A DNA stretch of 64,000 nt from Bispira polyomma (taxonomy: Eukaryota), in contig OZ287748.1 of the NCBI GenBank assembly GCA_965649765.1, positions 75,330,001 through 75,394,000 on the forward strand, in the 5' to 3' direction. The notes below the pieces were generated by a model. The model was not told where the DNA came from. It was given only the letters and a program-made list of their open reading frames with translations, and made no database searches. The translations under genes and the position numbers were made by a program. Positions 20,538 to 62,660 of the stretch are shown one piece after another; position 1 is the first letter of the stretch; every line of letters begins with the position of its first letter.

Positions 20538-22850
20538 TATTCCATACCCCTTGTGTAGGTAAACAGGGTGCGGGGGTGGGATTTTTTATTAAGAAAAACT
20601 ATGAATGTCGATTAGTTGCTACACCAAGTTTTACATCTTTCGAACTCATCCTTGTCTCTGCTGACTGGAAAAACCACTGTTTAAATTTTGCAACAGTTTA
20701 TCGGCCTCCTGGCTCAAATCTCACTACATTTTTCGAAGAATTCATGTCTTTTGTTGGGTTTACTTGCTCGTTACCCTCTACTACTGTATTCTGTGGGAAT
20801 TTTAATATTCACATAGACACCGCATGGCGCCGAAACAAAACTACTACAAATAGATCTAGACTATGCCAATCACCTGGTGCAACAACACTATAAATGACTC
20901 AAAACATGCCTACTATGCCAACATGATATCACAAAGTGAGGGTGACCCGAAGAAACTTTGGCAAAAACTAAATAGCACCCTCCACTGTAAAAAACAGACT
21001 ATACTACCCGAAAATTGCTATAGCAACTCACTGGCAAACATTTTTAGTACTTTTTTCACTGATAAAATTACCAGAATCCGTTACGGTTTTATATTAGCCG
21101 CCCCAAATGCTCCTTTACCAACAGCTCAACTAACCATCTTCGACTGTTTCTCCACAGTAACTGTTGATGAAGTCAGGAAAATTATACTGGCATCACCTGT
21201 AAAATCTTGCTTGCTAGATCCGTGGCCCACATTCCTTGTTAAGGAATGTACTGACATTTTATTGCTCTCAATCACAAAGCTTATCAACCTCTCGTTGGTA
21301 AATGGCGTCTTTCCAGATGATTTTAAAAAGGCCATTGTCACTCCTTTAATAAAAAAAGCCTTCTCTTCCAAAGGCTGACTTGAAAAATTACCGTCCTGTC
21401 TCAGACCTTTGCTATATCTCTAAGTTGGTAGAACGTGCGGTTGCCTTACAGATCAAACAACATGTTGACGTCAGCAATCTGTCCAATAAGTATCAGTCAG
21501 CGTACAAAAGTGGTCATTCTACTGAGACTGCACTTCTCTGCATCAAAAATGATGTTCATACATCTTTATCCAAAGGTATTCCTACTGCCTTAGTACTGCT
21601 GGATCTGTCAGCAGCCTTTGATACTATTGATCACAAAGTTCTTCTTGAGTGCCTATCGTCTTGGTTCGGTATCAGCGGTATGGCGCTTAAGTGGTTCACG
21701 ACATATTTGTCTGATAGATTCCAATCAGTCAAAATTGGCAATATCTTATCCGACCCAACATGGTTAAAATTTGGTGTTCCCCAAGGCTCCGTCCTGGGTC
21801 CCATTTTGTTCTCCATGTACACCACTCCACTCAGCAAGATTATTACTGCATACAAAAACATAAACTTTCACTTCTATGCTGATGATACCCAACTGTACAT
21901 CCACCTTACACCTGACTCTGCTCAGGCAGCTTTCACTTCCTTACAGAACTGCCTTGTTGATGTACAACACTGGATGGCAGCAAATAAACTCAAGCTGAAC
22001 CCTGAGAAGACTGAGTTTATTTTGTTTGGCTCCAAGTCGCAACGGGAAAAATTGTCCAGCTGTTTTCCACTTGACATTCTTGGCAGCAGGTTTTTTCCAG
22101 CTGACAAAGTACGAAACCTGGGGGTGGTGTTCGACTCTGAATTCTCCTTCTCTAACCATGTCGCATCGGTGTGTAGATCATGTTTTGTTGGCCTCCGTGA
22201 TTTCAGGCGGATTCGACGTTATCTTTCCAAATCCACTGCAATCACTGTTGCCAATGCTTTGGTCAGCAGCAGGCTTGATTACTGCAACTCTCTGTTCCGT
22301 TCCTTATCTCGTAGTGATCTCAGACGCCTACAGAATATCCAACACTCATTGGCACGTATTGTGACCAAAACTTCTAAATTTTCCCACATTACTCCTGTAC
22401 TCAAGTCACTGCACTGGCTCCCAATAAAATATTGTGTTGCTTTCAAAACAGCAACAATAATATATAAATTTCTAAATTCTGGATTACCCACTTATTTTAG
22501 CCCCCATCTATCAAAATATACATGCTCAGTTAGGACAAGGCACAGTAACCATGATAAATTATACCTTAACATTCCCACTTTCGACCCTCGCATCCACAAA
22601 TCCAAAGTTCAGTTCAATCACTGCCTAGCTCATGATGGCCCCCTCATTTGGAACAGCCTACCTGATCCTGTTCGCCTGGCTCAAACTTTCTCCTCTTTCA
22701 GGAGTAAGCTGAAGGCTTATCTTTTTGAACAGGCTTTTCCACCTTAGCCGTCGCAACCATTTACGGTAGTCTCCCTGGTTACAACTTCCATCCGCCCACT
22801 ATTTTTGATTTTCGATTAATGTTTTGGGTTTGTTGCGCCTTAGAATTTGT
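20538..22850 (+). mobile_element. L2-clade LINE, internally deleted endonuclease, near-intact RT
   Basis: APE fragment (GVGFF, VYRPP, GNFNIH) joined by deletion near 20820; homopolymer frameshift near 21355; ORF 21380-22747 with NYRPVS, LDLSAAFDTIDH, GVPQGSVLGP, YADD, SRLDYCNS, LHWLP; 3' UTR to ~22850. Confidence 0.95.
21380..22747 (+). CDS. L2 ORF2 reverse transcriptase domain (455 aa open segment of a disrupted ORF)
   Basis: Uninterrupted non-LTR RT motifs including YADD; not a complete ORF2. Confidence 0.85.
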   Translation: MKNYRPVSDLCYISKLVERAVALQIKQHVDVSNLSNKYQSAYKSGHSTETALLCIKNDVHTSLSKGIPTALVLLDLSAAFDTIDHKVLLECLSSWFGISGMALKWFTTYLSDRFQSVKIGNILSDPTWLKFGVPQGSVLGPILFSMYTTPLSKIITAYKNINFHFYADDTQLYIHLTPDSAQAAFTSLQNCLVDVQHWMAANKLKLNPEKTEFILFGSKSQREKLSSCFPLDILGSRFFPADKVRNLGVVFDSEFSFSNHVASVCRSCFVGLRDFRRIRRYLSKSTAITVANALVSSRLDYCNSLFRSLSRSDLRRLQNIQHSLARIVTKTSKFSHITPVLKSLHWLPIKYCVAFKTATIIYKFLNSGLPTYFSPHLSKYTCSVRTRHSNHDKLYLNIPTFDPRIHKSKVQFNHCLAHDGPLIWNSLPDPVRLAQTFSSFRSKLKAYLFEQAFPP

Positions 22851-32945: not shown

Positions 32946-33796
32946 TGAAAACATAAATAAATATGTCGGATGTTGTAGAACACATGTCATAAAAAAGCTA
33001 TTTAACGCTTAGGTTATTGGTTAGCAGTCGACGGAATTAGTTACTCCCACAACCTATATGTCTGTTGACAAACAATTCGACACCCCAAAAAATATTATTA
33101 TATTTTCCTACAGTTCCTTGAAATAGAAAATTGTTTGTACAGCACAGCGCCCTATAGTGTGACCTTGAGAGTAATTACAAAAGGTAAAACCACAGTAATT
33201 AAAAACATGCCAAGTGGGGGTATTAAGTTTATTTCTGCATTTCCCAGCCCCAGGCCAGAGGGGTCAGAGGTCAAGAAGACAAGATAATAATACTACAGAA
33301 TGCGGTAAAACATTTATTGTTAGACTACAGGTTAGACTAAAACTATCTACAGGCAACTTAAGGTCACCAGAATTACAAACAATTATTTACAGAACTTATG
33401 GTGGCTTAAGGCCACCTTAAATAAATGTTTTAGCGTTGCCAAGTGATTTGGTAAGGTCACCTTAGATAAACAAAGTCCATTGTTCAAATTAATTCACTAT
33501 GACAAAGGTGACCTTAAAGTGAAAAGGTTAAGTTGAATTTCCACAATTAATTACTATAAGACAAGTAACCTTGGATTACTATTTAACAGTTTAAAGCAAA
33601 CCTCTATGCGTTAAGTAGTATTGAAGTAAGGTACTAGTGCTTTACAATTACTGTTTAATAGTTAAGCACACGCTAAGTTGGTAGCAAGTCATATAGAAAT
33701 GTTTCAATTACTGCTACAGAAAGAAGTTCTTTAAAAAAGATACGTGAACAAAGGCTAAAAAATGACTAAAAACAGCCAAACCCCAATGTAGTAGGG

Positions 33797-34741
33797 CTAG
33801 GAAGGTAAGGAAGAAGACAGCTGTTTTCGAAAGGTGTCAGCCACCTGATGGCCAGCATCAACAGTGTCAGTGACGTACCTCCACACGCAGTCCGACGTCC
33901 AAGTGCTAAGTTTTTGTATGTTCTGAATGCTAACGTTACGGTTAAATGCGAAAGTGGTACCTGAACGACGGAAAGTGTGGAAGGTAAGTCCAGAATCTTG
34001 TAATTGTAATCTGGTAAGGATATTTTTGAAATGCACTCGAACCTTGGAATCAGCCAGGGGAGTCCATTGGGCTTTAGTTTTAATTTGGAAAAGGGGAGAA
34101 TTTGGTCCAGAAGGGGTGAGTGCCAAAATATCTTCTAAAGCACGCACAGGGCACAATGGAGAGTGTACCAATCTAGGGACAGTAATGAGTTTAATTTGTT
34201 TATTGTTTTGCATTGTTTTGGACCATTTTATGAGAAGTACTGCGTTGTGACGATGAATCATGACGTCAGCTTTTGCCAAATGTTTTAAGGCAGAAAATTG
34301 GTTAACAGAATGTGGAACCAAATTTGATAATCTAAGGAAAGAGAAATAACTAAGCAAGTAAAGGGCTTTGAAGACAAAGCCCATATATGTGGTATGACAC
34401 ATTTGAATGATTTTTCCCAAGGTTGGAATGTCAATTTTTTTTTCAACTTACCATGGAGAGGCGCAGCCATCTGCACTGCTTTCTGGTAGTATGCAATACA
34501 GGGGTCAATAAATGCATGAATATTTACATTGTGAATTATTGACTTAGCTTTAATTGTAACAACTCTAGAAATCACAAGAGGTCAAACACAGTCACCTGAT
34601 TTAACTGCATGTCCATGAAGGCAGCATAGGCCCGAAAGACTGTATACATTGCATTATAGGATCTTGCAGTGGATCTGCAGAAAGCCAGGTGTAGTTTTTC
34701 TGTTGCCTTTTTATATAATAGTTGTTGTACTGGGTTTTTGT
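33797..34741 (-). pseudogene. Tyrosine recombinase of element 2
   Basis: Three frames join (34572-34790, 34285-34575, 33797-34420); R-K-HxxR-W-Y catalytic set recognisable. Confidence 0.9.
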
Positions 34742-34786
34742 CTGAAAAAATAAGAACACTACCAGAAGCATTGTGTGACACAGTTA

Positions 34787-37240
34787 TCATATGTGCACAT
34801 TAAGTAACAGATGTTTCTCAGTCACTGGACACCATTGGACGTCACCTGCAAGACTATTTAATCGATTAATGTCCTGTGCAGAGTTGATCCATCTGGACAG
34901 CAAGTCAGCTACAGTATTGTTTTAACCTAGGATATGAATCTTTCAATTCAACATCAAAGTGGCTAGCCACCATGAAAATGTTTCTGGAACATAGGGCTAA
35001 GTCAGAATTGCGCATTCTGCCATGAGTAATAACACTAACCACCGCCTGGTTGTCACATTTTAGGACGATTTTTTGTCCTTTCCAGAGATGAGCCCATAAC
35101 CTTAATGCTAGTAGAATGTTCAACATTTCCAGGAAGGCTATGTTGTGATGATGCATATTTACAGGCAGAGGCAGTGTATAAACCTGTTTCCCATAAACCC
35201 ACCCATTCCTTTTAGGCATGCGTCCAACTCTAAAGTGGCACTCACAGGTTTATGATAAAAGAAAGACAAGCCATTATACTTTTTCAAAAATGACCTGAAC
35301 CAAGTCAAGTCTTGCCGAAATTCAAAAGAAATTTTGAATGATTTTTTGTTATGGTTACTACTAAGAAGCTGGAGCATGCGGTTAAGGAAGAACCTGGAGT
35401 ATTTCACACATTTTGATATGTATAAAAGAGAACCCAGCAAACACTGGAGCTCACTTTTTGTACAGTACTTTTTACTCGCCCACTCATCACACATAACTTG
35501 TATATTTTCCAGCTTTTCGGCCGGTATCGAGGTGGTAAAGTCTACTGTGTCTATGTCAATTCCTAAACAGGTGACCCGAGTTGTTGGAGGGACTAGTTTT
35601 TTCTGGCTCAAAGTAAGACCTAGTTCTGCCAGAATACTTTGCAGGCGATAATAGGTTTTGTATATTTTTGTGGCAGTAGAACAGCATGATAGATCGTCGA
35701 TATTGTTCAATATATGGTGACCTTCACCCTTCATTATGAACCGGATACTATCTGAAATTCGCTAAAATATTGCCAAGCCATGCTTGTAGCCGAAGGGGAG
35801 GGAGCCGTCCACATAGTAACCATCCCAATAAAGTCCCAATAAATTGACATCCTTAGGGTCCATGGTCACATGCCTAAAGGCGCGACTGATGTCCGCTTTA
35901 AAGATCAGAGAACCCCTCCCCCGGCTATAACTTGATTTGTTATAGTGTCAATCGATGGATATGTGAATATAAAATCGCTGTTCAAATACGGGATACTGCA
36001 GCATTAACCGAATGACCTTCTAGCCAGCTGAGATCAATTATAACTCAACGGTTAGACGAGCTGGATTTATTTCTGGTCATAAATGGGAAAGTATGTAACT
36101 TGATGTCAGGAGGTGTGGCAAAAGGGCCATACATAGCACCCAACTTGCATTCCTAGTGGCTCACTCATTCTGGGTATTGTACAGCTGAGGAGTGATTGTT
36201 ACGTTCTGATTTAAATTCGTGTACGTCATCACAATCAAGGGGGAATCCAAACTTGATTAACAAAGGGAGTTCCCAATCCCAGTAACCTTGCAAGTATTCC
36301 GCCCATACATTGGCATTAAGCGGAGTAATAACAGGTAACTGAAGGCCCCTATAATTAAGGCGACCATCCAGCACAAGACACTGGTGTAGAGTCAAAGCAT
36401 GTTCAGGTAGCTTATCAGCTGAGTTATCACTAATAGGGGAGTCCCACTGTGTCAATGGAATAAACCCAAACTTGCCCTCATTCTGCACATCCCACAAATT
36501 ATAAGTGCTATGTTGCTTAGCTTTGTTCAATTGTTGTATTTTGTCAGGGCGCTTATGCATGTCTAATGAATACTTGTCAACACAGTCAGTCAAGTTCAGT
36601 TTGCTTGTTTTGCGACCACCAGTCAACTTCTTTGCATTATCAGAACAAACACGACCCCCACACTTGTTGACCTTGCCAACACGGTTTATTGTTTCACTAG
36701 AGGCCAAAGGCTCTGCAGAAGTGACACTTTGAACACAGTTTTTCCCCACATCATCTACACAATGGCTTAACGCAGAAAACTTATTAAGGAGGAACAACTG
36801 AAAAACACCACTCCCCATTCCATTGTCCCCCCCCCCCCCCCGAGTTCACACCTTTTGTGACATAATTGAATGGTTATTGAGGTGCCCCCCTTGGGGGAGG
36901 CTTGATTGAAAAGTTGTTGTGTGTACTTCACACCGTTTTGTAACATTGATTTGTTCATTTTCGACACAACTAACTTGTTGGCAACTTTTTGTTTACACTT
37001 AACAGAGGGTTTTGGTCCCCTGCTATTTCTCCCAATGTCGCCCACCACAGGTCGGCTAGTGTGGACTCGAGAATTACCTTTTTTCACATCCACTACCACG
37101 TCCCACGTTTGTTACACATGAGATATTTAACATACAATTGATCACACAATTTAGAATCTTTAAAGTTAGAGTTGTACACCAATCTAGAATATATCACATC
37201 ATTTTGACGTTTAGGGTCCACTGCAGTACTGCAGTGGCCA
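34787..37240 (-). pseudogene. pol (RT + RNase H) of element 2
   Basis: NYRGLQLPV..LN..W..GFPLD, NHSSA, LGLTLSQKK..CLGIDIDT, LLGSLLYISKCV, RNase H motifs; several stops and frameshifts; ends ..LLLNVHI*. Confidence 0.9.
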
Positions 37241-37251
37241 CTCAGTTTTTT
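37218..37251 (-). promoter_or_regulatory. Putative -1 ribosomal frameshift signal (A_AAA_AAC + hairpin)
   Basis: Slippery AAAAAAC (37251-37245) in gag phase before TGA; 7-nt spacer; perfect palindrome CCACTGCAGTACTGCAGTGG (37218-37237); homologous cassette at 49831-49864. Confidence 0.65.
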
Positions 37252-38210
37252 ACTACTGATTTTTTAGTACATCACAGTTTTTGCAGCAGTGTTTAAACTA
37301 CTGTCCGGAAGTACGGTGGCTAGTGTTGAACTTACAAGTTCCTTCCCGGAAAAACCGACAGACAACGCCTTGAGATTTAAGTTGACTTTTTGGCTTGGAA
37401 TTGGACTTTGAAGCGCCTGAGTTATTTGTACTGTTTGGAATATGGCGTTGAGCGTGAGCTCTACAGACACGGTCTACTTTGTCGACGTCCATCCACTTAA
37501 GGTGGTGAAGTTCCATATTAGTAAGCAAAATAGCGTGAGACGCTTTGGCGGCTTCCCACGAGAAATCATGGGCGTCATCCATCAAATTGGCAAGATACTC
37601 AAGCATTGCCTCCCGTACTTTTGCTCCTGTATGCATCGAACAAATCCTAAAGTAAATTCCACTAGGGTTAAAGCATCGTATGTGGGTCTGGTTTTTTTCA
37701 CTTCCGACAGTACAAAATTCTGAGGCCGATCAACGCTTTTCTTAATAGGGGCCTCAGCACCACCACGCTGTGACTTTAATTTACCTCCGGTAAATTCATT
37801 GAGTTGTTGCAACTGCACTAAACGCTGGTCTACCTGGGCCTGTATTTGATCATTTAAGCGCCAAAAAATTTTGGGAAAGGAACCACGGTTTCTATTACTG
37901 GCTCAGATACTTTTGCAACATTAATACTGGATATAGAAGGGTTTGTACATGCCTTATTGGCACTGGGTAGACACAGCGCCGCCTCCGTGACTTGCAAACG
38001 TCGATCCATGCTCTTCATTTTTTTGTTCAACGCCTGGAGTTGTTGTAATATTTGTCCAGACACAGAATCAGACAAACCATTGGTAGAAGCAGGATCAACC
38101 GTGGTCACTTTCTCGGCAACGCTGTCCTCCAAGTAAAACCGACAACGCCTTCCAACAGGCCTTTCATGCTTGCCCGAACACCCATTACACTGATATTCCT
38201 TTTTAGGCAT
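37242..38210 (-). pseudogene. gag-like ORF1 of element 2
   Basis: N-terminal CNGCSGKHERPVGRRC, coiled-coil-like segment, GKLKSQRGG, YDALTLVEF..GF, YLANLMDDAHDFSW, C-terminal Cys/His motifs; ends AAA AAC TGA. Confidence 0.8.
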
Positions 38211-38341
38211 TTTCAGGTATATTTCAAATAAGCTTTAAACTAGAAGTTAAAATCAACGTAGGGTAGTAAAGCCCCAATTGTTAAAACACTCTTTCTTTGA
38301 GAATGTATTTGTTTTAATGATGGCGCTTGTTGGATGCCAAA

Positions 38342-38351
38342 CCCTTATATA
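38342..38351 (-). promoter_or_regulatory. TATA box of element 2 internal promoter
   Basis: TATATAAGGG ~135 nt upstream of the gag ATG; equivalent TATAAAGGGCG at 49338 and TATAAAAGGCG (minus, 57184-57194) in elements 4 and 5. Confidence 0.55.
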
Positions 38352-39685
38352 CTTGTCCTCGTGACCCCAGGTGGCCTAATTGGCCCCCAGTAGCCTGGTG
38401 CCAGAATTGAGGGGACTGTTGCCGAGGCGTCAGCCCACCATTATAACTAAAACATCATTTACATACACAGGTAAGGGTCACCTAAAATTATTAGAAGATA
38501 AGTTTTTAGACTAAGGTAGCCTTACCTTTAATTCCAAGATAAAGTAACCAAAGTTAGGTTAAGGTAGCCTTAAGATATAACCTTACTTTGTTAAGGATAC
38601 CATAAGTTAAATATAAGTTTGAGTTAAGGTAGTATAACCTATTTGTTAGGTTATCCAAAAAGAATTATAAGAAGTATATATAGATTATAATAGAAAAAAA
38701 GACAAGATAAGGTGGCCCTAAAAATTGATAATTAAGGATAATTATCACATATAAAATAAAGTTCTGTAAAATGTATGTAAAGAAAAGCTCGAAAGCCCAA
38801 CTGGGCGCAGCAGACTCCTTTGTTTGAAAGACTTAACATGAGACTGTTTTTGAATGGCGGAAGTAGTCTGTGGTGTGGTATTTTAGTGACTCCAGATATC
38901 TGTAACCGATTACCTGAAATGTCCTGCTGTTTCCAGCGTTAGTTTTTTTTCTTGGAGTCAAAAGGGATAAGTTTAAGGAATGATGTTTAACATTTGCATT
39001 CATAAACCCATGTGGAATTTCTGTTCTCAGGCAGATATCTGGCCATTTTAACTGTACAGACATACCTAATAGTGACCCAAAGTTAGGATGGCCCAACGAG
39101 GGATGTACTGGGGGGTTTGCCAAGAAACGCCCCGTGTATGATGATCTGTCACTACCCCAATGGGCTGCTGGGCAGCTAACCAACCCCCTCCAGGTAACCG
39201 ACCCTGTAATTTCACGTGAGATAATTCAACAAGTTGTTTCAGCCTTATGAGATGCTTCATCTCTACCATGGGAAGTCATATGAACCGCATGGGCGCTTAA
39301 CATGACGGAAATAGAGGAAGGATGGCTCTCCTGGGGCGACTCGACACAATGGGCACTTAATTGCCTAAGTGCGTCCCAGACGGCGATGGTGAACACAAAG
39401 GGAAACTTGATGTCCACGCTTTCTAACTTAACTACTAACTCAACAGCAGCTAGAGTAATTTTCAAGTTATTTAATAACAGCAAATGCTCTCATAAGTCAG
39501 ACCACGCACAGTACAAACACGTGTACTGGCACGTCTGTTCGACAGTTCTCCACAAGGAATCTCAACACCCGGAGTTTAAATGCAATAAGGCAAACTCTTC
39601 CAAACAGATGGAAACAGGGCTTAATCCAAATAAATAGGAATGTGGCCGACCACCAGTAGTAGGCAGATGTTACATATAAGGACAT

Positions 39686-40273
39686 TGTGGTATGTTAAAG
39701 CACTAAAGTGATCTATTTATAGATTTGGGGAACCCCTAAGCTTCTAGAAGCTGGTTCTATTTTGTTTCTGTTGTTATTGAAGTTAGTATAATTTGTTTAC
39801 AATTTTATTCCGGAAAGTTCTAGCGATTGTTGTTTACATTCTCTAGCAGTGGTATATATAAGGGTTGACAGCCCGGCCACAGACTAGAGTTTATTGAGTT
39901 GGTGTGCCATGCTATACTGTGAAACATTTTATTTCTTCTCCTGTGGATATAAACTGATTATTATATACATTTTGTGGTAAACTCATTGAAGTGAACTGGA
40001 TATAAAGTTGTGGATCTACCAGAGATTGGATTTGCTGCATATCGGATATTGTTTGCATCCTGGACTGGATAGCTTAGTTGTGCAGACTCTCTGGATATAT
40101 ACATTTTGTGTTTGTAGACACCGAACGGATAACAGGATACAGACATTGTGTGGACACCGAGCGGATCTCAAGACAGATTGCTGGATACAGTGGACAAACT
40201 TGTTTATTGTTATTTATGTGGACAGGACTGTGGTCAGGTCAGATCAACCTAAAAGTAACCGGTAATTGCTACC
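39686..40273 (+). mobile_element. Solo-LTR-like insertion with HSE/FoxO sites and TATA inside element 3
   Basis: Interrupts pol N-terminus; TG(TGGTA)...TACCA ends, TATATATAAGGG at 39853, internal short repeats (gacaccga.cggat x2, tatatacattttgtg x2); no clear TSD found. Confidence 0.35.
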
Positions 40274-43087
40274 ATGCTTGCTCCCGTGACCGTAACAGCA
40301 GATATTTGAACAATAGGGACAGTGTGGTTTGTGGTTTTAATAACCTTAAAGTAAAAGACGAAGTTTGCAAACTTGCAACCAATAGTATAAATAGTAAATA
40401 TGTAAATGAATCATGTAAAAATGTTAATTGTAATAAGTTAATGGAAATATCTAGTTGCACCAAAAGTGAGACAAATAATGTAATGCAAAGCCCACACAGG
40501 CACTTAGCTATAAGTACGACTGTGACTTTATGTAGTGAGAGAAATAGAAATACTGGTATATTGAACCAGGCCACAAAGGGTAACGGGTTTCCTGGGGGCA
40601 CTGCTAGTACTAGCAAACCCACACAGAGTATCCAACAAAATACTTAAATACTCTCAAACATTTGGATTATCATGAGGGCTATGTTTACCATGGGATGTAC
40701 GACGAAACTGTACCAGGAAAAAAATCAAAAGGGGATAGGGATACATAATACTTGGGATAACAATTACAACTTAAAAAACAAGGATATACTTCGAGTATGT
40801 CAAGAGTCTGAAGGAAATAAAGTCAGGATTTCTACAGCCAACTGGGCGTTTTATATACCAGAAAAAGGATATAATATCCAGGTAAGTACGTCCAAGATTA
40901 TGGGCACAGGTTTTCAGGTTTTTATATGCAAGGGGATGGGCTGTGGGGCCTACAAGGCCACTACTATAGATGCGATGATCCCTCACCGGGTGAGATACAC
41001 ATTATCCACTCAGTAAATTCATTCCTGACTTTTATTCCTATGGTACCTAGAAGGGGTCATTATGTGACTAATGTAACTGATGAAAATTTGTACAAGGCCA
41101 AAGAGTCTTGGCTTGAATATAATAAATATGTATCATATATGAAACAGTACAATGTGAATTACACAGATTATATAACCAATGTGATTGACATATTGTTAAG
41201 TGAATGTTCTGATGTCTTACCCTCTCAGATAAAGAGAGATGTGGCTACAGGTATAGTTACACCGTGCGACCTCTTCATCGAAAAGCATGAACATGCTATA
41301 CAAAGCACTAAAGAAATTGCTACCATAGATAGGGACGTTAACTTACCCAACAAGACCAAAGGGTTTTTGGCATTATCTGACACCAAATTTAAATTTTGTG
41401 GACCCGACAGGGCTCCCATAAAAATTGATTCTATAGAAGACTAAATGACTAAATGGGCAAAAATCATCAGTGACACGAAATGTCCTAATTACAGAGAGGC
41501 AAGAATCCCTCTGCTTTCTGGACTTAACATCCCAGCATGGAAAAACGTACTTAAAGATTACCCAGATTGCTTTTACAAAATCTCAAATTCGGTTTCCCTC
41601 TCTCACTTCAAAACCCACAAATTTTAAGGAACTTTGAAACCACTAATCACCACTCTGCTCAGCAGTTTAAACTGCTATTGTTTAATATCTGGATAAGGAG
41701 AAAAAGTGTAGTGCAATGTTAGGCCCTGCTACTGATTCTTTAGATAAGGAAAGTTTCCACTGCCCTCCACTGTTAACCAGACCAAAAGACAGACAAAAGA
41801 CGAGTTATCTTAAACTTATCATATCCTAAAGGAAATTCCAGTAACGACAATGTTGACAAAGAACATTTTGACGGGGTACAATTCAAACTGTAATTCCCAA
41901 CAATCGACGATATAGTAGAGAAAATATGTAATACTAGGAACCAAAAATATGTAAACTAGATGTAGCACGCACTTTTAGAAACTTAAGGGTGGATCCAGCA
42001 GACGCTTTAAAACTGGACATTTGTTTTAAAGGCGGAAAATGTGTCAATCCGGCTGTTGCGTTCGGCTGGGTCCACGACTCGGCCATCCTTCATTGCTACT
42101 CTGACGTTGTAGCCCACTACATGGGCAAAATTGGACACACTGTTTTCTGTTACATCGACGATTACGTCGGTGTCTCCACTTCCGGTGAAGCGGACACAGC
42201 GTTTGATGAATTACATCAACTCGTTAGTGATTTAGGTGTTCCCTTGAATCTGAATAAAATCTCAAAGCCAAGCTCAAAGATAACTTGTCTAGGCATTGAT
42301 ATAGACATTGACAATGGCATTATAAGTATTACAGAGGAAAAAATCAGGGAAACATACCAACTCTGTCTAGACATACTGAACAAGAAATGGATTTCTAGAA
42401 CAAAATTCCAGTCTGTCCTTGGAAAACTTATATATACATAAATGTGTAAAACTTGCCAGAATTTTTAGCAATCGTTTACTCAGGGCTTTTAGAAATAACA
42501 GCCAAGCGAAGCGTTTTAAAGTAACAGAGGAAATGAAGGCAGGCTTGCTCTGGTTCAAAGGATGTTTACCTGCCTACAACGGCATTACCTTTATTAAACC
42601 TATGGACACGGCTTTGGAGAATGAAGTTTTCATAGACGCCTGCTTAACGGGCCTGGGGCAATATACATGAATCAAATATACGCGAACCCTCTGTATAACG
42701 TGTTCGGACGAGAACTTACCATAGTGCATATCGAAATGCTAAATATTTTGTTGGCTTTGAGAGTCTGGGGAGAGCAGTGGAGACATAGAAGGATAGTCAT
42801 AAATTGTGACAATATGACTGTCGTACTAGTAATAAGGTCAGACAAAACTAAGGACGAATTTTTATCACTCTGTTTAAGGAATATTTGGCTAATCGCATCA
42901 ATCTTTGATATTACTATTGAAATACAATACATAAGGGGCAAGGACAATATAATAGCAGATCTATTATCTTAATTATTTTCAGAAGAACCCCCCCAAGGGG
43001 GAACAAGTTAATATTCTAAGTGAAAATTGTATTTGGAGAAACATAACAATACAGGTTTTTAACCTAGATCTTACTGTGTAATTCCAG

Positions 43088-44063
43088 GTTCCACTCAAGT
43101 CACACAAGCTTTCACCAGTTCAGCATGGCAGAGAATAAACAACTCACTTCGTCCACAGTCTACAATGGCTTATAACAACCAGTTTAAGACATTTGTGTCT
43201 TTCAACTGTTATGCTAGCATTAAGGAAATTTCCACACATTCCATAGTAGCATTCCTGGAATACCTTTACAAACAGAATCTTCACCTGCCAGTATTAATAA
43301 TTATCTGGGCGCTATAAAACACATGGCTAAAAAATTATCATGGAACCTCAGCATGTTTGAGAACAATACTATTGCTATGTTTACTAGAAGCTTAACTCAC
43401 ACATCTTCCTTTAGACCACTTCCTAAAGGGATTTTCGACATGCAACATCTATCCTTATTTCCAAAGCATGTGATATCCTGAGTGATCCTTCACTATATAG
43501 AGCTATTTTTCTCCTTTCCTTTTTTGCTTTTCTAAGAATGTCCAACATTGCTCCCCACTCCAGGTCGAAATTTGACCCAACTAGAAATTTCCTTAGAAAA
43601 GATATAATATTTGCTCACCCAGGGGCTCACATAAATACTGAAATGGGCAAAAAATCTACAAATCATATCAAAATTTCACATCATTCAAATTCCACTGTTA
43701 AAAAATGCTGTCTTCTGTCCAGTCACAGCTCTACAGAACTTATTTAAGACCAGGCCTCTCTCTGAGGACCACCCTCTATTTGTGGACATAATTTACCCAC
43801 ATCAGATTATTATTGATTCACATTTGAGATTGGCCCTTTCCACAGTACTAAAACACATACGCATTCCACACACAGGCCATACTTTTCACGCATTCAGACG
43901 TTCTGGGGCCACTTTTGCTTTTGATTATAATGTCTCGCTCCAGAACATTATGTCCCATGGATTATGGAGATCCTCAGCAGTACGGTCATACCTTCAGAAA
44001 AATTCACAAGCTGTATCAGCAGTACCACTAACTTTTCCTGCCTCGATACCCCCCCTTGTTTAG
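43088..44063 (+). pseudogene. Tyrosine recombinase of element 3
   Basis: STQVTQAFTSSAWQRINNSLRPQSTMAYNNQFKTF start, several frameshifts, intact C-terminal HAFRR..HGLW..Y. Confidence 0.88.
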
Positions 44064-45049
44064 TTTGGCTTGGGCTTTTAAAAATCTCTGATTTTAAATT
44101 TGTCCTTTACTTTTACCCTGAATTGTATATACACTTTTACACTAACATGTACAGAAAATAAAAATACCTCAAACCATAAATTACCGTCTTGACTTACAAC
44201 CTGAAACTACCAACTGAAACTTCATATCACTTACTGACTTTACAAGGACAACTGTGCACAGCACGACCCAGCAGGGGTCTGGTGGTTCAGTTGTCCAACT
44301 AAAGTTGTCATACATCTTAATCCCTAGGGGCAGCACTGACCAACATTCGTTCTGTCCATCTACACAATGCTGACCAATGAAATTGCTTCTTTACCAAAAG
44401 TTTCCCTCCAAAAGCTAGGGCTCCTCAATCTTGGAATAAGATTCAGTGAAGAAACGCATACATTTTCCACCCACCTCCACTTTTACTACAATTATTACAT
44501 CTTAAGGGACATTTATAGATAGTTTATGGTCACCCCATTCACGTGTTATACATCAATTTATGGTACATTTATGGGCTTAGCTTCTGTTTCTAATCCACTT
44601 CAATATACTCACCTAGATAGCTCGCATAAACACCTTCTAGCGCTTCAAACCCTGGTTCGTGTGGTGCTGGTTCCTAGCTTCAACTGCCCCCTGGTGTGGG
44701 CTACCGGGTAAGTTAAAGCTCTGTGGGAATCTTCACTGCTATGCAACTAGGTGCCGTAGGACCGGGGTTCTAACCTTGGAGGTGGATCATCGTTGGAAAT
44801 GATGTAGTTAACCATACAGTTAATATATAAAATCATTAGTTAGGAGTTGTATGAAAGCGCTGCCTTAAGAAATATAATTTGTCAGCTGAAGTTGAAGTAC
44901 ATCCCTGATTAGATATAATGTCCCATGTCTCACCAACTGACCCAGGTGCCTTCTTGTCCTTGAAACCAGATTTTTGATAAAAAGATTTCAAAATGACCTT
45001 CCATGGCAGATTAATGCTGCAGATGCTTACATGTGACATGAAGGCTGAA

Positions 45050-46254: not shown

Positions 46255-47481
46255 TTATCCACAAGGTGGTGACTTTTTCCTGTATCTTTTGTATCTGGTA
46301 CATATTAACACTCGGATAAGCTCCACACGGAACATCTTGGCACAGAGATTGTACAGGATAAAGTTAATAAAGTAGTTCAAATAATAGGGCACAGAAGTCA
46401 GATATTTAGCAGCAAACAGATGCCACTGGGGGTAGATGCCACTGAAGCCAATCAGTCCATAATATTGGGCAAACAACAACACCCATGTGATACAATATGG
46501 CAGGTTAAGGACCACAAACGTCATGGAGACAACTAAAAGTAATGTAGCCACATTATAGTCATTCTTCTTTCTGTACTGTATGGGTTTGTCGTTGCTAAAA
46601 CTGACTCTCCTCTGTATAAAGTGCTTCTGCTTGGTGTAGATTTTACTCAGTATGTAGACATTTAATGTACATATAACCATAATGGGGATGATTATAGATC
46701 CGAAGATTAATACTATCACCGTTAATATAAAGTAGATCCCGGCTCTGCCTGGCAGTACATCACATTCATTGCCATATGGTAAATCCACAATGCCCACGGT
46801 AAAGACAGTGAAGGAAGTGCACAGGAAACATAAAATCCCTGCAATGGCAATGACCTTTCTCACGTAAAAAGTACAGCTGAAGCCGGCTCTTTTAAGGGGA
46901 TGTATCACCCCGATAAATCTCTCCACCGTAAAGGTTGTCACCAACAGAGCTGACATAAGCCGACTGGTGTAGGACAAGTGGGTGATAAGCACACATACCA
47001 AATAGGAGTGCTTAACAATATCCAAACCAATGTGAGGATGCTTTAGGCAGTAATCAAACAAAACCGTCATTAGGGAAATGTTGTCGGACACACCCAGTGC
47101 AGCAAGGTACCATGATGTTGCACGCTTACGCATGCGCATGTTCAAGAAGACCGTGATTGATAGACTGTTGCATATCAGGCCTAGTGGAATAATCACCAAC
47201 AGAGAATAGAGCATAATATCCTGACTTAATGTGTAAACACCATTTACAGTTTCTTCCTGAGTTAAGGTACTGTAGTTTACTAATGTCCCGCTGAAGTTGT
47301 CAAAGTCATTATCCTTCCGTAGCTGCGCTCCAAACAATTCAAACCGGTTGTTTGCAACAAATGAGGAGGCGGTGAGATCCTGGTTGGGGTCCATTGTGGA
47401 AGAATTCCTCAGTTTGAGAGTGTTGTCCAGTTGGTCCAGGCTGAGACTTCTGGCGGTTGTGGTGTCATTCATTTTTGGCAT
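46255..47481 (-). CDS. Rhodopsin-family (class A) peptide GPCR, FMRFamide/sex-peptide-receptor-like group
   Basis: Intact ORF with seven hydrophobic segments, TM1 GLICN, TM2 LAALGVSD, TM3 TVERF, ECL2 Cys, TM6 FVVLNLPY, TM7 LNYFINFILY, N-glycosylation sites in N-terminus. Likely start ATG at 47481 (MPKMND), downstream of a pyrimidine tract + CAG acceptor at 47514-47512; the ORF track start is 47577. Confidence 0.92.
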   Translation of the reverse strand: MPKMNDTTTARSLSLDQLDNTLKLRNSSTMDPNQDLTASSFVANNRFELFGAQLRKDNDFDNFSGTLVNYSTLTQEETVNGVYTLSQDIMLYSLLVIIPLGLICNSLSITVFLNMRMRKRATSWYLAALGVSDNISLMTVLFDYCLKHPHIGLDIVKHSYLVCVLITHLSYTSRLMSALLVTTFTVERFIGVIHPLKRAGFSCTFYVRKVIAIAGILCFLCTSFTVFTVGIVDLPYGNECDVLPGRAGIYFILTVIVLIFGSIIIPIMVICTLNVYILSKIYTKQKHFIQRRVSFSNDKPIQYRKKNDYNVATLLLVVSMTFVVLNLPYCITWVLLFAQYYGLIGFSGIYPQWHLFAAKYLTSVPYYLNYFINFILYNLCAKMFRVELIRVLICTRYKRYRKKSPPCG

Positions 47482-49264
47482 CTGAGTTTTATACCGAATG
47501 GTGCTAGTCCTCTGATGAATAAAAGCAGTATGAGGAAAGTAAAATTTAGGAGTGGTGGTACAATTGTATGACAGCATCGATCATTATTTTTGCCTTGAAA
47601 TACTAAGAGTAAAGCTAGCCTTCTATAAAGACTACTTTAATATATAAAAATATCTGTTCGTCTTAGTTTTTCTGAATGATAGATGATACATATGATCACT
47701 GTCATAAATATAAAATCCAGTACAAATAGTTGATACATACATATTTTTTTAATAAAAATAAGTTTCACATAGTAAAGGTCACAATAAAATTCTGCAACAG
47801 TGTTGTCCCAGACAATAAGGGATAGGTGCTTCTAATCTAATTGTTTGATTACTGTCCATTGAAGGAAGGAAATACGACAATTTACTCAATGAGAAGCCTC
47901 TGCATTTTTCTGGGTGTTCAACCGGTCACAAGATAAACACAGACTGCAGTCATTGTTTGTCGAAGTAATGGAACTCTGTTTGCATACCATGGTCTGTGGA
48001 TTTGAACCATAAATTGTGTTATTTTGTAAAACTACTATTAATTAACAGTTATTGTGGGTTAAATTTTATCAAATAATATTTTAATGACAAAAAGTTCCCA
48101 TTAATATATGCGTTCACTATCATAGGTTTCTGGAATATATGATTTGCGAAGATTAGTTTTGTATAAATACAAAGACTTGGTGGAGAAATAGTTAAAGCAA
48201 ATTTTAGGATGGGCAAGTAGAGATTTTTTATAAAACTAACAAGAATATCTCTTAACTACAGACAGATTGAGGGACTGTTAAGTTGTGATATGTGAATCAA
48301 CAGTGCTGCCATTTTGCTGCTATTAACAGTAAGATGATGATGGCAGGTACTGTCTTTACAGCCGACCACTTTTTGTATCAAACTATACACATAAAATGTA
48401 CAAAAATCCTCACAGTAGTGCATAGTGAAGTTAAATATATTTAAACTTCAATAACAAGCTGAATATCAGTTAGACATATTGATGTGTAAAGCTGATTTAA
48501 AGTTAATGCCTGCCTCTAAATAGTTTCCTGTCTCATGCGTCTTAAAATCTGCTAAGCATGGAGATAAGCGCTATAAAAGTTAGATTAGATTAGTTGTCTC
48601 ATTTAGTGTTAACATCCACTAAACCAAAATGTTTGTTTCTGTGTGGTGTATTGTAATAATCTAGAATCAACAGTAAATCAATCTTAAAATCTGAAAATGT
48701 TAAAGCATTGACACTCTATTTAATAAATCATGTGGTTACTATCAGTCAGTATAAGTGTACACCCAACATTGCAAAACACACTGGAAGAAAATATAAAAGT
48801 TAAAAATAGGTTGTGAAATATAGTATTATTATAAATATTTTCTGATATTAAAACAAACAGTCAGTAATAAGTTCGCTTTGCTATTTTTCTCAGCATCACA
48901 TAATTTTGTGGACACTGCATATATTTGGACAAAGTGCATTTGTAGACTAATATATTTACTGTCCATACATTTGTGACAAAACAAAATAATAAGATAAAAT
49001 GAATAGTGAGCACCACTTTTGTCTGATATTTTTGCAGGAACATGTAAATAATTAGACAAGACCTTTCTTTAGCAATGGATACATACCATCGAGACAAATA
49101 TGACACATTGCAATAATGACAACGATTAAGAGGTTAGTCATTAAAGTGGGAAAATAATGGGGAAATAGATCATTCACCTAAAAAAACATACAGTAAGTAT
49201 ATTGACTAAAGTATAATAATTTGCTGTAGAGTGTGTACCTTGCATTTACTGGGTGTAGTTTACA

Positions 49265-52200
49265 ATGCAACGACAAGGTGCTGGCGATTTTAGTTCTGGT
49301 GTACCAGTCTTATATAGTCACAGTTGATTGTGGCCAGTATAAAGGGCGATGCAACATAAATCTTCCCGCCTTCTCGCAAAATGTTTATGATATGTGATTT
49401 CAGTAGACAGTTGATGTGTTTTATCTGTTGTATTTTAAGTGTTTTAGTACCCTATTTTAATCATACTCTCTTAAAATGCCGCGTAATAAAGTATATAGTT
49501 ATTTAATGTGTACGAAAAAGCATGAAAGGCCAATTGGCAACAGATGTGCATATAATAAGGATGTCTCATTTGAGGAATCCATCACCGACGCTGACTCGAG
49601 TGATGAAGCACAACAAACTTCAGCTTTTGATGGCAACCAGTAACCAGCAGTACTTCTCAGGGTGTAGGGGCACGGGGTATCAGTAAGGGGCAAATATGGC
49701 TAAGCAGGACTCAGCAAATTGCACATTTTTTCAGGATGGTATGTGTAAGTTCTCCAACAGTGAGGAAACGCCTATTTTAAACATGTGTTAAGGAGCCCAT
49801 GAAAGCAACACTTGCAGCTACAAAAACAGTAAAAAACTGAGGGGCCATTGTTACAATGCAGCGGGCGATAAAAAGTAAAAGAATTGAAGTATACAGTAGA
49901 AGTGTATATATGACAGACTTTCAAGCATTTCAGATGTTTGACAAGGCTGTCATTTCTCAAATGTGTAAATATAACAGGGGTAAACAGCTTCAGTATAGTT
50001 ATAGTAAAGACGTGAAGAAAGTATGGAGAAGTAGTAGAATCAATACACAGAGGTTTGAACAATACGAGGGAGGCAGTAAACCAAATGCCAACAATTAATA
50101 TTGTGGGAAAATTAGAAAAATGCAACATAAACAAGGGTTCAATTACCACATCTCACAAAAGCACCTGGGTTAAAAACCACGTAAGTGTCAACTTTCTATT
50201 GTTTAGGTTGAAGAGGGCGAAAACAATATCCAAACTCACAAGGCAGAATGCAGTGAGGGAGGGAAATCTATTATGAAAGGCCGGGTTGGCCGAAACAATA
50301 CAAAAGTAGAACTAAAAAATGTCAACAAGAAAGGGGCAAGTATTATGGCAAGTGTGGAAACACACAATAGATTAGATTACTCAACAGCCAATGTGCCTTA
50401 GTGTGGTCACTGATATGGGGGAGGGGTGTAATGAAACAACAAAGGAAACAAACATTGCAAGCGACAACCGAATTTGTTTCAAAACAAACACAAACGTGTC
50501 TGACATCAATATGAAAATCAATAACCCCAAGTGCAAAGACGTGTATTGCTCCAGCATAGACAATACAATACAACAACTATTAATGATAAATATGCCTTAG
50601 AACTTAAGCGAAAAATCAACAACCTTGAATTGCTGAATAAAGCTTCAAATGATAATACTTATTTTACTCCTCTGTCAAAACCTCTGCTGCAAAGTATGAG
50701 AAAGTAAATCCGGAAATTATTGCCTTGATGTGCTACAAATGCACATTGTAGACCTCAGTTGGCCTCTGGGCCAATCTAAAATGGGACTCCTATTATGAAG
50801 ACAGAGCACTTCCTTTCGGTTAACAAAACAGATCTTATATTTTCCAGAAAAGAAAGCATCCACAATTATGTTGACGATTATTTATGTATATCGTTACTCA
50901 GCAAAATAAACACAATTTACACTAGGGCTCACTATGAGCAGTAAAAAATTTATCGACCCTAGTACCAATGTTGTATGCTTGGACATTCTCATAAATACAG
51001 TAGACTTCCCCACTTTAATCATTGAAGACAAACTCAAAATAGTAAAACAAATGTGTCAAAATTGGTGAGACAATGACTATTGTAACAAACGAGAACTGCA
51101 GTCCCTACTTGGCTCATTAAAGTACATCTGTTCATTCAAACAGAATGCTACAATTGCTCAGAGATAATCATGATATGAAAATATTTTGCATATAACATGA
51201 CATTAAGATAAAATTAAAATGGTTTACTACATCCATGAAGCAATTTAATGGCGTTGCATTCTTTTCACACAAACCGGTTGATGCCCAGATCGAACTCGAC
51301 GCTTGCCTAACTTGTACGGGTGTCATATATATAGTCTATAAATTATCCATACAATATCAAATGTCTCAAGACAAGATTGCTTCCCTTTAAATGCTCAATA
51401 TACTGGTTGTTTTGAAATTATGGGCTAGAATATAGAAGGAAAAAGGGTAATTTTAAATTTGTGACAACCAAACCGTGGTCAGTATATTGGAGACTGGCCG
51501 CACTAAAGATCTGATTTTAGCCACATACACCAGAAATATTCATTCATATACTGGGTATAAAAATAAAGTCGCCGACCTGCTTTCCAGATGAGACAATACT
51601 AAAAATAATAACCAACTCTTAAGTGAATGGGGAGGGGGCTGTAACATGGCTCTCAACAAATGTGTCATTATTAAATATAGATAATCATCTATAGCATATA
51701 TAGTATTATTGTTATATATTCCAGGTGTAAACCCATTGGGCACACTGCTGACAAAAGCTGCTTGTAAACGGATGCACACTGCTTTTTGGCAGCAAAAGCC
51801 TATCATAGCATGTTTAGGCTCTTCCTCGATTTTGGCGTTTTCTTGGAATGGCCTGTTGCTCAGGTGAAAGTATTTCCATTGCTGTCTTATTTAGAGTTCT
51901 TAAATTTTAATAGTGTGTCTGCTTCCCAAATTGCCAATCATTTGTCGGCAGTTCAAGCCAAATGTATTTTGTTTCATATTAAAGTAGATGTATTATCTGA
52001 CCCAAGAATCTCTTATAGCAGAGCCTTGTCAATTACCAGACCCTCCATACCCAAAATTATGTTTGACATATCATTATTATTACCTTGGGTTAAAAGATTT
52101 GACTGTACCTACATGGGACAAGTCTGCAAAGTTTTATATTTGACAATTTTGTTCAGCTTTCTGAGGCTGTCAAATTTGTGTCTTTATTCTGTTGACAGTT

Positions 52201-53230
52201 TCTATCCACTGAAGCACCTGGCCAGAGGGGACGTGCTTTTGAAACCTGGGTATGTAATAATTCTCATTAAACGGTTAAACACCATGCAAACAAATGACAC
52301 AGTCAAGTTATTGACACTGACTGTTTTGCCTAATTCTAAGCTATGTCCAGTACCTGCCAGTTGTTCTAGATATCACACCCTCTGGCCAAAATATTTCCTT
52401 GTTTCAGTACAAATTATCTGGTTCCTGGGTGCCCATGATTGACATTCGGGTTTTGGAAAATGTTAGGTCTCACTGTATGCCTTCCAGCTCAACTTTATTG
52501 CACCTGGACGTCAAGCTGTATATGGCGGTATATAACAGACTCGGCTCAAGTCGAGTCCCAGGTAGCTGATTCCTTCAGCAAGGCGTTATAACATACCTGT
52601 TAGTTTATCTGGTGTTCTGGGACATCTTATGTCCCCCTGTAAATTTATTATATACAAAGATTAATGTGATCAAACAATTAAAGATGACAGTAATTATTTG
52701 ATACTGTCTCGGGGCATAAGGTTAACTTACATTGGGTAGTACATAATGTACTCATCCATATAACTTTAGACTTACCTGAAAATTCAGTCAACCTTAACTT
52801 AATCTCTTACATTCATTTATGGTAACCTTAGCTAAATTACTCACCTGAATTTATGGTAACCTTAAGTAAAATCCTTACCTTAATTTATGGTAATCTTATG
52901 CTCTTATTACAAAATGGCTGTCAAGTCATTTTACTCGGGCTGTGTGCCCTCAAAGACTTGCGGTGTTGTATATGTATGGCTAATACTTGTAAATAGCACC
53001 GAATCCTGCCAAGAAAATCTCAATTAACAGAATGCTACGGGACCTGCAAGCTGACCATAGAACAGCTTTGCACAATTGAAGCACACGTCGTTCTAACTTT
53101 CCATGAAAGACACTTAAAAGACCTATAAATTAAGTTAACCTTAACTAAATCTTTTACCTGAATTTATGGTAACCTTAACTAAATTCCTTACATGAATTTA
53201 TGGTAACCTTAAGTGATATAACAATAACCT
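49265..53230 (+). mobile_element. DIRS-order (Ngaro-like) YR retrotransposon, element 4, multiply deleted
   Basis: TATA 49338, gag ATG 49476 (..CTKKHERPIGNRC), AAAAAACTGA 49831, NYVDDY at ~50864, ELDAC RNase H, YR 51725-~52600 (FLRLSNL, LARGDV, KLCPV), palindromic 3' region. Confidence 0.88.
52815..53215 (+). repeat. 34-bp minisatellite (two blocks of ~3 units) containing TTAxGGTAACCTTAA
   Basis: Unit atttatggtaaccttaactaaattccttacctga at ~52815, 52849, 52883 and ~53128, 53162, 53196. Confidence 0.85.
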
Positions 53231-55029: not shown

Positions 55030-57270
55030 AAACACCAAAAAGACTATGAGGTATGCTGTAATGCCTGGCTGAAGGAATTGACTACCTAGGTCCCGACTGG
55101 AGCCTGTATTTTCCACCTACCATATATGACACTACATACTGTACATACTATATATAATTATCTACATTTAATAATGACACATCAACTGGGAACCATGTTA
55201 CAGGGCCCACCCATTCATGTAATAGTTAATTATTATTATTGTCTTGTCTCATCTGGAACATAATCATCGATATAATTGTGGATATGAAACCCTTCTTTGA
55301 GCATTATAAACCTAACTGCGTCCGATAATCGCTGAAAAATAGTCGTCTATTACTGGAGCTTGATTTATTGTGCGTCATCATTGGTAAAAAGTGCAGGCTT
55401 TCTATTAGAGGACTTTTTAACGGGTCGAGTATGGCCCCGAATTGGCATTCTGCGTTCAAATATATATCGACGTGTTCGGAAAAGCCATTAGATGACTTGT
55501 GATTAGTACCGTCTAATTGGCTGATGTTTTTGCACTCACGATCATGGGGAAACCTGTATTTGACCAATAAGGGCAATTGCCACTGCCAGTACGACTAGTA
55601 ATTGGGGACCTCTGTAATTGTGTCTTCCATTGTTTGCAAGTTTATGGTGCATTTGTAGCACATCAAGGCCATAATTTCCGGATTTACTATCCGGCAATCT
55701 AAAACCAATTTTTTTTATGCCATTACATTATGTTTCATCGTTTTTGGCTTTATTAAAGAATTCACACTTTTTCTATTTTTTGTTTAAGTTCTAAAGCATA
55801 TTAATCATTTGAAGTGACGCCTTCAGTGTTGATAACTGATGTATTGTTTATGCTGGAGAAATACACATCTTTGCCCTTGGAGTTATTGAGTTATGTATAT
55901 ACACTTTTTGCTTTAGGGAAAATCTGGTTGTCGCTTGCAGTGTTGGCTTCTGGTGTTGTCTTATTACCCCCCCCCCCCCCCCCCATATTATTAACCACAC
56001 TGGGGAAGGTGGGCTGACCAAGAATTTGAAATTTATTGTGCAACAAGATTTGCCCGAGTTTTAACACCTGCCACAATACTCGCCCCTTTATTGTTAGCAT
56101 TTTTATTTGTTACTTTTGTATTGACCAGGCCTTCCACAATAGATTTCCCTCCCTTACTACATTTTGCCTTGTGAGTTTAGCTATTGTTTCGGCCCAGTTC
56201 AATCTGCACAATAGAAAATTGACATTAACTGCGTTCTTCAACCTGGGGGCTTTTGTGAACTTTTGCCAAGTTTGTTAGTTGAATCCTTGTTTGTTTTATA
56301 TTTTTAATTTTTCCCACTAAATAATTGTTGGCATTTGATAAAAAAATTCCTGGCAGTCCTCCATCAGACTAGCCATATACTCTAACATTTTTCTTTAATT
56401 TAGTACGATTTCTCATCCTGGTTAATTCTAGTAAACCCACATACTCACTGGTTGAGCGACAAATCGTTGTATCTTAGCCTTGTTTTTAAGTTACCTGCTA
56501 GTATGTAATTTTGAGGCCACTCTACCACCTTTTTTTACCAATATGTCTATACATAAACCTCTCTGGGGTTTCACCTTAACTTAAGTAGGGTTTTCATTTA
56601 ACTCTTTTAATTTAACGAGCATCTGCTCGACTTGACTTTGAATACTGGTATTTTTTCAAAGAAATTCGACACTAGGAATGACACTTTCACTGACACTACT
56701 TTCAATTTTTTTTATTGCTAATGTTTACAGAATTACTTGTAGAATTGGAACTACTCACTTGTATTTTGCTGAGGTATCTAGCCAACGCTGCCTTCGTAAG
56801 AAGCACCTGCTGGTCCATGCACTCCATCATTTGGCCATAGGTTGTAATAAGATCTGTTTTAAAACTATCGCGAGGTTGACATCAAGAGCTGGATTTCGTA
56901 GTGCTTCCTCACTTGGGACAAAGTTGGTGGCAGATTCCTCAAACAAACATCCTTATTAAATGCACATCTATTGCCAATCGGCCTTTCATGCTTCTTCATG
57001 CATTTTAAACAATTGTATACTTCATTAGTGACATTTTAAGAGAGTATGATTACAATAAAGTACTAAAAATACTTAATATCTAACAAATAAAACACATTAA
57101 CTCTCTAATAAAATGATGTATAGTATTTTGATGTTGCTATTCTGTAAATATTTCATGAAAAAGCGGGACAATATCAATTGCATCGCCTTTTATACTGGCC
57201 GCATTCGACTGTGACTGAATAAGACTGTTACTCCAGAACTGAAAACGCCAGCGCCTTTGCATTGCCTTCT
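55030..57270 (-). mobile_element. DIRS-order YR retrotransposon, element 5 (close relative of element 4, inverted)
   Basis: 56920-57270 is the reverse complement homolog of 49265-49590; gag CLKCMKKHERPIGNRC; RT N-part (NHKSS..GAILDP..MMTHNK); RNase H tail VTWFPVDVSLLNVDNYI*; most of YR deleted. Confidence 0.88.
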
Positions 57271-62269: not shown

Positions 62270-62660
62270 AAATTGGTTTATGTCGTAAAGAATTCTGCAC
62301 TTTGTCCGGTTACATCTATCAAAAACCTCTTAGCCACAATCCCATCAAGTAACAATAATCCTTTGTTCCAGGAAAGTACAGGAATAAATATAATTGGGTT
62401 CCCCTAACGGAGACCACAGTTAATCACCATCTTAAAAATGTGTTGAACATATTAAGTTAAAATAATTTTAAATTAACAATTCATTCTCTCTGATGTTCAG
62501 GTGCCACATTTGATTCCAACCATTATGTTGAGATTTAAAACCTTCAACGACATGGCATCTTCAGCACCTGGATGTTGGATTGTATTTGCCGACGTATTGC
62601 AGATTCACCTGATGCCAGCTCTGAAGTAGCCGACACCTTTAGAATACATTTTACTCCTAT
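62270..62660 (+). pseudogene. Tyrosine recombinase C-terminal relic (YR element 6)
   Basis: NSALCPVTSIKNLLATIPSSNNNPLFQ, HSL*CSGATF, LQRHG..TWMLDCI..SEVADTF homologous to the other YRs. Confidence 0.85.

Follow-up and report, generated by a model that had tools for sequence, protein, structure and literature searches.

How a retroelement produces the polymerase encoded behind gag, in another reading frame and with no shared start codon, is the question raised by a short segment (37218..37251, minus strand) of the window, the 64,000-nt stretch of DNA analysed here, which sits on one contig of a 1.035-Gb assembly. Mapping with natural proteins from intact relatives identified six tyrosine recombinase (YR) retrotransposon pieces in the window. 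These comprise a YR end (26-796); element 2 (33228..38453, minus strand), a decayed Ngaro-like YR retrotransposon of family A, delimited by 89-90% identity to three relatives; element 3 (39021..44500, plus strand, right end approximate), an Ngaro-like element that is truncated at its 5' end and belongs to another clade, family B; element 4 (about 49470-52588, plus strand), a decayed copy with the same -1 cassette as element 2 at its junction (49831..49864); a minus-strand fragment (55200-57020); and a YR fragment (62180-62658). The minus-strand fragment is 75-96% similar to element 4, inverted relative to it, and lacks the gag-pol junction. The window also holds an ORF of 441 aa (46255-47580, minus strand) that has no introns and encodes a rhodopsin-family 7TM domain, probably a host gene amid the transposons, which together with the genome size points to an animal host, and an RT ORF (464 aa, RVT_1) with related fragments (20860-22747 and 59522-60514, both plus strand), probably belonging to a non-LTR element.

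The gag-pol junction of element 2

Domain identification with tblastn and Pfam gave the ORF order gag - RT/RNase H - YR for element 2, all on the minus strand. Its broken gag (37242..38210) encodes an N-terminal zinc finger and C-terminal CCCH and CCHC motifs; the likewise broken pol (34787..37251), entered in the -1 frame, comprises a long N-terminal region, RT and RNase H, and no methyltransferase; and a broken tyrosine recombinase ORF follows (33797..34741). At the junction, and just where the initial annotation had placed them, lie a slippery heptamer A_AAA_AAC (37245..37251), which forms the gag codons Lys-Asn in intact relatives; a 7-nt spacer (37238..37244), whose first three nucleotides are the gag stop (TGA at 37244-37242 here, and TAA, TAG or TGA in relatives); and an 8-bp hairpin with a variable 4-nt loop (37218..37237), a predicted frameshift stimulator. 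The junction folds with z = -4.84, none of 200 shuffles being equally stable. Relative to two close relatives, the gag of element 2 lacks 22 bases between 37272 and 37271, gag and pol carry further reading-frame breaks, and the copy is out of phase at the junction, a point overlooked in the initial annotation.

For element 4, the heptamer, TGA and spacer (49831-49844) are present as previously described; the stem, with 6/8 pairs left (z = -0.02), has decayed. A single indel had been assumed to restore its phase, and one extra base is indeed found upstream, with a second phase break right after the stem as well. Both window copies are dead fossils of the frameshift signal.

We consider it very probable, from comparison of the aligned sequences, that the 37218-37251 cassette is a conserved gag-pol junction carrying a programmed -1 ribosomal frameshift signal that gives a Gag-Pol fusion. 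The rule for -1 frameshifting, as set out in the available text of PMC3542737, asks for a heptamer X_XXY_YYZ, a spacer of 5-9 nt and a structure; the layout in element 2 fits this rule and supports a -1 frameshift, and A_AAA_AAC is listed among the shiftiest sites in the accessible sections of PMC5009743. In relatives, the heptamer lies in gag phase, the structure lies 6-7 nt downstream, and the -1 ORF is open without a shared start. The majority of ribosomes would read AAA AAC and then the stop, yielding Gag, and a minority would pause at the hairpin while tRNA-Lys and tRNA-Asn re-pair one base back, the slipped ribosomes continuing through K-N/K-L-x-x-H-C-x-x-A-V into RT/RNase H. The 'perfect 20-nt palindrome' earlier singled out in element 2 is incidental: from one subfamily to the next the loop changes without constraint, conservation being confined to the arms, which rules out the palindrome as a special feature and, with the loop sequence free, a pseudoknot through the loop as well.

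Abundance of the cassette and phase of pol in family A

A cassette pattern that let the spacer span 5-7 nt and the loop 3-6 nt returned 446 exact matches genome-wide, none with a reversed-pattern control and none in viral contigs; among the 100 of these 446 matches listed, inspection by eye found a spacer of 7 and a loop of 4. Part of the family A sample was picked by the motif itself: 40 stretches were fetched with it, and 38 of them carry the cassette (L052 and L070 do not). The -1 frame runs unbroken from the heptamer to the YxDD motif of RT in five of these 38 copies (593-866 aa), and no frame 0 or +1 ORF spans the same interval in any of them, the longest +1 ORF reaching 104 aa. Across the 38, the RT motif lies in the -1 frame in 10 (the five unbroken copies and five more), in frame 0 in six and in the +1 frame in seven; we attribute its position in frames 0 and +1 to later indels. 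One copy, L053, carries a 633-bp pol segment in tandem at 100% identity, either a recent duplication or an assembly artefact.

A second set of 61 loci, which includes elements 2 and 4, was fetched mainly by DNA similarity. A zinc-knuckle match was found in 55 of the 61, and 48 of these 55 show the heptamer and stop with at most one mismatch (43 exactly); at least seven of the eight stem pairs form in 41 of the 48. Most copies are broken, elements 2 and 4 among them. Single-ORF Gag-Pol fusions were absent among 1574 candidates, which is weak evidence. Outside this assembly, 120 pol homologues were compared; four of them contain the peptide KKLxxHCxNAV, and these group with family A in a 64-row tree, from which seven rows were left out, whose thorough search was incomplete, and whose place was taken by the 27-row tree described below.

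Nucleotide-level conservation and stem pairing

Codon usage was analysed in 16 dereplicated members of the similarity set, which were not chosen by motif. Codons that form the stem are frozen at their silent sites (GGC 12/12, CAC 16/16, TGC 14/15, AAT 11/11, GCA 14/15 and GTG 15/15), and the final two gag codons are AAA AAC in 9/9 sequences, other gag Lys codons being split. Further downstream, most conserved residues are encoded by more than one codon (Val 8/7/1, Ser 6/4/3/1, Lys 5/5), and Asp31, Phe32 and Cys45 are single-codon too, all T-ending. Frozen silent sites in the heptamer and stem, set against mixed codons downstream, point to coding in the -1 frame from the heptamer onward and to selection on the heptamer and arms as nucleotides. 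The earlier proposal that pol is made by programmed frameshifting is supported in the lineage to which elements 2 and 4 belong: its pol is in the -1 frame, coding constraint is not enough to account for the conservation of heptamer, spacer and stem, and no ATG is shared.

Covariation, suggested earlier as a check on the stem, gave a divided answer: no compensatory change was found within the 8-bp core of family A, and compensatory pairs were found between clades A and C. The latter clade emerged when a gag protein from a metagenome contig served as a query blind to the motif and the first 30 loci were classified, of which 19 fell in clade C, eight in clade D (pol in -1) and two in the +1 clade, one remaining without a clade. 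In clade C, the hairpin occupies the same position, the gag stop lies one codon further on, and the heptamer is intact in most copies; the clade C pattern gave 363 matches and none with the control. Among 28 aligned sequences of A and C, 92.9% of cells pair, with one stem pair being C-G in 14 and G-C in the other 14, and the loop-closing pair occurring as A-U, U-A or C-G. Because the C-G/G-C swap represents a single event between clades, the shuffle numbers overstate the covariation. Pairing that extends the stem past 8 bp is weakly supported (13/37 and 29/37).

In further clades the heptamer is also in phase, at a distance of 7 or 28 nt from the gag stop that follows it, and the downstream sequence is different. 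In clade D (L226, L199, L188, L196), the heptamer lies 28 nt before the stop and no strong hairpin adjoins it. This retention of the heptamer without a strong adjoining hairpin, and the origin of the main covarying pair in one inter-clade event, count against the frameshift reading. L195 and L201 have the same heptamer, then 7 nt, then an unrelated hairpin with the gag stop in its upper part.

Probable splicing of the recombinase and alternative routes to pol

Behind pol, the recombinase raises its own problem of expression. Its frame relative to pol is 0 in 13, +1 in 10 and -1 in 20 of 43 copies, and it nearly always follows the pol stop. In element 2, a predicted phase-1 splice donor GT lies at the gag Gly-Lys codons (37783..37784, minus strand) and a predicted phase-1 acceptor AG where the YR frame begins (34742..34743, minus strand), both conserved in relatives. 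The donor is present in 26/33 family A, 16/17 family B and 19/28 copies of other clades, no GT donor being found at the gag motif searched in clades D and E, and the YR frame opens at a phase-1 AG in 43/45 and 30/33 copies. These conserved sites make it likely that the recombinase is translated from a message in which Gag(N) is spliced to YR. For family B, no copy of the Gag-YR junction was found in the genome, which is no evidence either way.

The same gag donor could in principle serve pol, which would then be translated from RNA spliced to a CAG|TG in the 3' arm of the hairpin, the hairpin controlling access to the splice site. That CAG|TG is invariant in 28/28 aligned sequences and lies in phase 1 of the pol frame, compatible with the phase-1 donor. 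As an acceptor, however, it scores poorly: on a matrix built from the inferred YR acceptors, the stem CAG has medians of -4.3 in one set (n=38) and -4.2 in another (n=31). The YR acceptors themselves reach +5.8 (leave-one-out, n=34), all YAG together have -7.5, and the stem CAG's T fraction is 0.18 compared with 0.54 at YR acceptors. Splicing also leaves unexplained the fixed spacing and the frozen in-frame heptamer of clades with unrelated downstream sequence. Chiefly because of the low acceptor score, we regard splicing into pol as very unlikely.

A start at an ATG of its own, whether by reinitiation, internal initiation or a subgenomic RNA, would free the hairpin for packaging or replication or for a role as a DNA-level palindrome. 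In many subfamilies the -1 frame does contain a Met at codon 33-44, and a stem that is invariant and does not covary within family A would suit a sequence-specific site equally well. Yet family A has no pol ATG in common: an ATG in the -1 frame just upstream of the heptamer occurs in only 9/37 representatives, and the first downstream Met falls anywhere from codon 10 to codon 155 in these 37, several subfamilies having none before codon 69-155. Moreover, the 40 codons ahead of the Met at codon 33-44 are conserved as protein with silent sites free, the stem arms covary between clades, and the heptamer would be left without explanation; an independent start is also very unlikely. Transcriptional slippage on the run of six A's at the site has next to no probability: besides being short, the run is invariably closed by a C and keeps its phase relative to gag, and the structure 6-7 nt beyond it matches ribosomal geometry (PMC3542737). 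Programmed -1 frameshifting thus remains the preferred explanation for pol in the lineage of elements 2 and 4.

An in-frame UAG-G in the clade of element 3

Element 3 had been grouped with elements 2 and 4 as a third carrier of the -1 cassette, a claim that is confirmed for the latter two and not for element 3. Its junction contains no X_XXY_YYZ heptamer and no -1 phase, and the '7/9 stem' described there, whose loop is only 2 nt long, is no more stable than shuffled sequence (z = +0.32). In intact relatives, gag and pol share a frame with an invariant TAG-G between them, the very arrangement named beforehand as speaking against programmed frameshifting, which is refuted here. What element 3 carries instead is an in-frame TAG followed by G (39635..39637, plus strand), a predicted readthrough site between gag and pol.

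This stop is constant across family B. TAG closes gag in all 18 fetched relatives that have a gag end (two of the 20 stretches were fetched for the LTR), in all 25 located among 29 family B loci, and, as TAG-G with the longest following ORF in frame 0, in 30/30 further diverged loci recovered with the foreign gag query, many of which read AAA-UAG-GUA. Three of six extended family B copies retain a frame-0 pol of 915-947 aa with YxDD, the other three being broken. Invariance of UAG-G in this family, while families A and C use all three stops, points to selection, and readthrough of UAG-G is the likely route to pol in the element 3 clade as judged from these junctions. Local folds are no more stable than those of shuffles, and no conserved stable structure was found 3' of the TAG. 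The segment after the TAG has a pN/pS of 0.65 in frame against 0.59 in the control frame, from pairs that are non-independent. Use of the family B TAG-G as a splice acceptor is ruled out by its score (-13).

Several subfamilies (L228-L257) show by eye a motif resembling C(A/G)AC-N-A(C/G)CAG 10-22 nt past the TAG, three to four codons after UAG-G, and in some the variant CAA-CUA, a candidate readthrough enhancer. Just behind the element 3 junction lies a solo LTR (39668..40297, strand not given; TG...CA with a 5-bp target duplication) for which the empty-site joint was found. It is 630 bp long, and its summed contig depth of ~427,000, compared with ~20 for the unique flank (run X1), marks a very abundant family.

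A first scan of metagenome contigs gave no loci. A second recovered six related loci, three of which cover the junction, all with an in-frame TGA-C. One metagenome element (L155:264-3821) pairs an unusually short first ORF of 155 aa with an in-frame TGA-C and a 1029-aa pol.

A +1 clade and the distribution of junctions on the RT tree

Outside the window, a third clade has a gag that ends in GTT-stop and a pol in the +1 frame, which in one copy is open for 584 aa through YxDD. In nine loci of this clade, GTT is followed by one or another of the three stops. Thirty further loci (four of them repeating the nine-locus set) were compared, and 25 read GTT TAA C with pol in +1 and a variable Arg codon ahead. 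GUU_stop_C is the motif proposed for closterovirus +1 slippage (PMC3542737, in the portion available), and a +1 slip on it is likely to be the way in which this clade reaches pol. Slippage by -2 is ruled out by the variability of the Arg codon that precedes GUU.

An RT tree of 27 rows separates the UAG clade (100/100) and the +1 clade (99/96) from the remaining rows, each by a single branch; the UGA loci group together at 91/91, and three label changes suffice for the gag-pol modes. Neither a root nor an order of events is claimed for the RT trees, and their rows are without named reference Ngaro sequences.

Comparison with known systems

The elements described here share with Ngaro retrotransposons (order DIRS), as defined in the available text of PMC4157794 and PMC8547959, the gag - RT/RNase H - YR order on one strand with YR last, the YR Pfam matches lying below the curated cut-off, and the absence of a methyltransferase, pol ending after RNase H (no methyltransferase Pfam match in two full-length pols). 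The gag proteins gave no Pfam match. Split direct repeats of the Ngaro type (A1...B1A2B2), with extra sequence between A2 and B2, are present in family A (L040, L047) and family B (for example L103, L105 and L112), and none were found in element 2 (33228-38453) or its closest relatives (L258, L259, L261). According to a quotation in the accessible part of PMC13003380, Poulter and Butler 2015 proposed programmed frameshifting for the Ngaro YR ORF. In contrast, the predicted frameshift signal here lies at gag-pol, YR lies beyond the end of pol, in any of the frames and preceded by a splice acceptor, and the gag-pol phase differs by clade (-1, 0 or +1); the published proposal would accordingly be redirected to the gag-pol junction.

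The partial texts available of PMC3783388, PMC6681497, PMC8547959, PMC3266345, PMC9210276, PMC13003380, PMC7192593, PMC9341512, PMC4157794, PMC3542737, PMC5009743 and bioRxiv 10.1101/2022.06.16.496473 describe no gag-pol slippery, readthrough or +1 site in a DIRS-order element, and nor do they show how YR retrotransposons make enzymes from start-less ORFs; Poulter and Butler 2015 and Goodwin and Poulter 2004 may discuss gag-pol. A -1 gag-pol frameshift alone would be an ordinary retroelement device. On balance, we favour a broader view, in which Ngaro constitutes a natural library of recoding that uses -1 on A_AAA_AAC, +1 on GUU_stop_C and UAG-G readthrough by RT-defined clade within one genome (with UGA-C in metagenome relatives), most clades at least also splicing the recombinase onto the front half of Gag. 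If true, this would supply a full retrovirus-like expression plan for the Ngaro group, including short, exactly defined signals by which the RT step can be tested, and the occurrence of three recoding modes among sister clades within a single genome would mean that the Gag:Gag-Pol ratio, and not the mechanism, is conserved.

Among known -1 cassettes, those of retroviruses and LTR retrotransposons (gag-pro of betaretroviruses and deltaretroviruses, gag-pol of lentiviruses) share with family A the heptamer, the 5-9 nt spacer and the 3' structure. MMTV, HTLV and EIAV use exactly A_AAA_AAC. The host here, unlike theirs, is a YR element in which no protease or DDE integrase domain was detected, and a short hairpin, its loop unconstrained and showing no sign of a pseudoknot, serves as the predicted stimulator, the gag stop falling within the spacer. 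Retroviral cassettes of this kind set the Gag:Gag-Pol ratio, as stated in the available sections of PMC3542737 and PMC5009743. With type III readthrough, for which the text available of PMC3542737 gives the motifs UAG-G and AAA-UAG-GUA, the element 3 clade shares an in-frame UAG-G in 30/30 loci, like the UAG-G of gammaretroviruses and the AAA-UAG-GUA of luteoviruses; it differs in having no conserved stable 3' structure and in being predicted from sequence. Finally, the +1 clade shares with closteroviruses the GUU_UAA_C gag end and a pol in +1 (25/30 loci). The closterovirus +1 mechanism is called a mystery in the portion of PMC3542737 available, and the motif here, in a retrotransposon of an animal-type genome rather than in a plant virus, could, if the reading is true, provide an animal-cell system for studying this mechanism.
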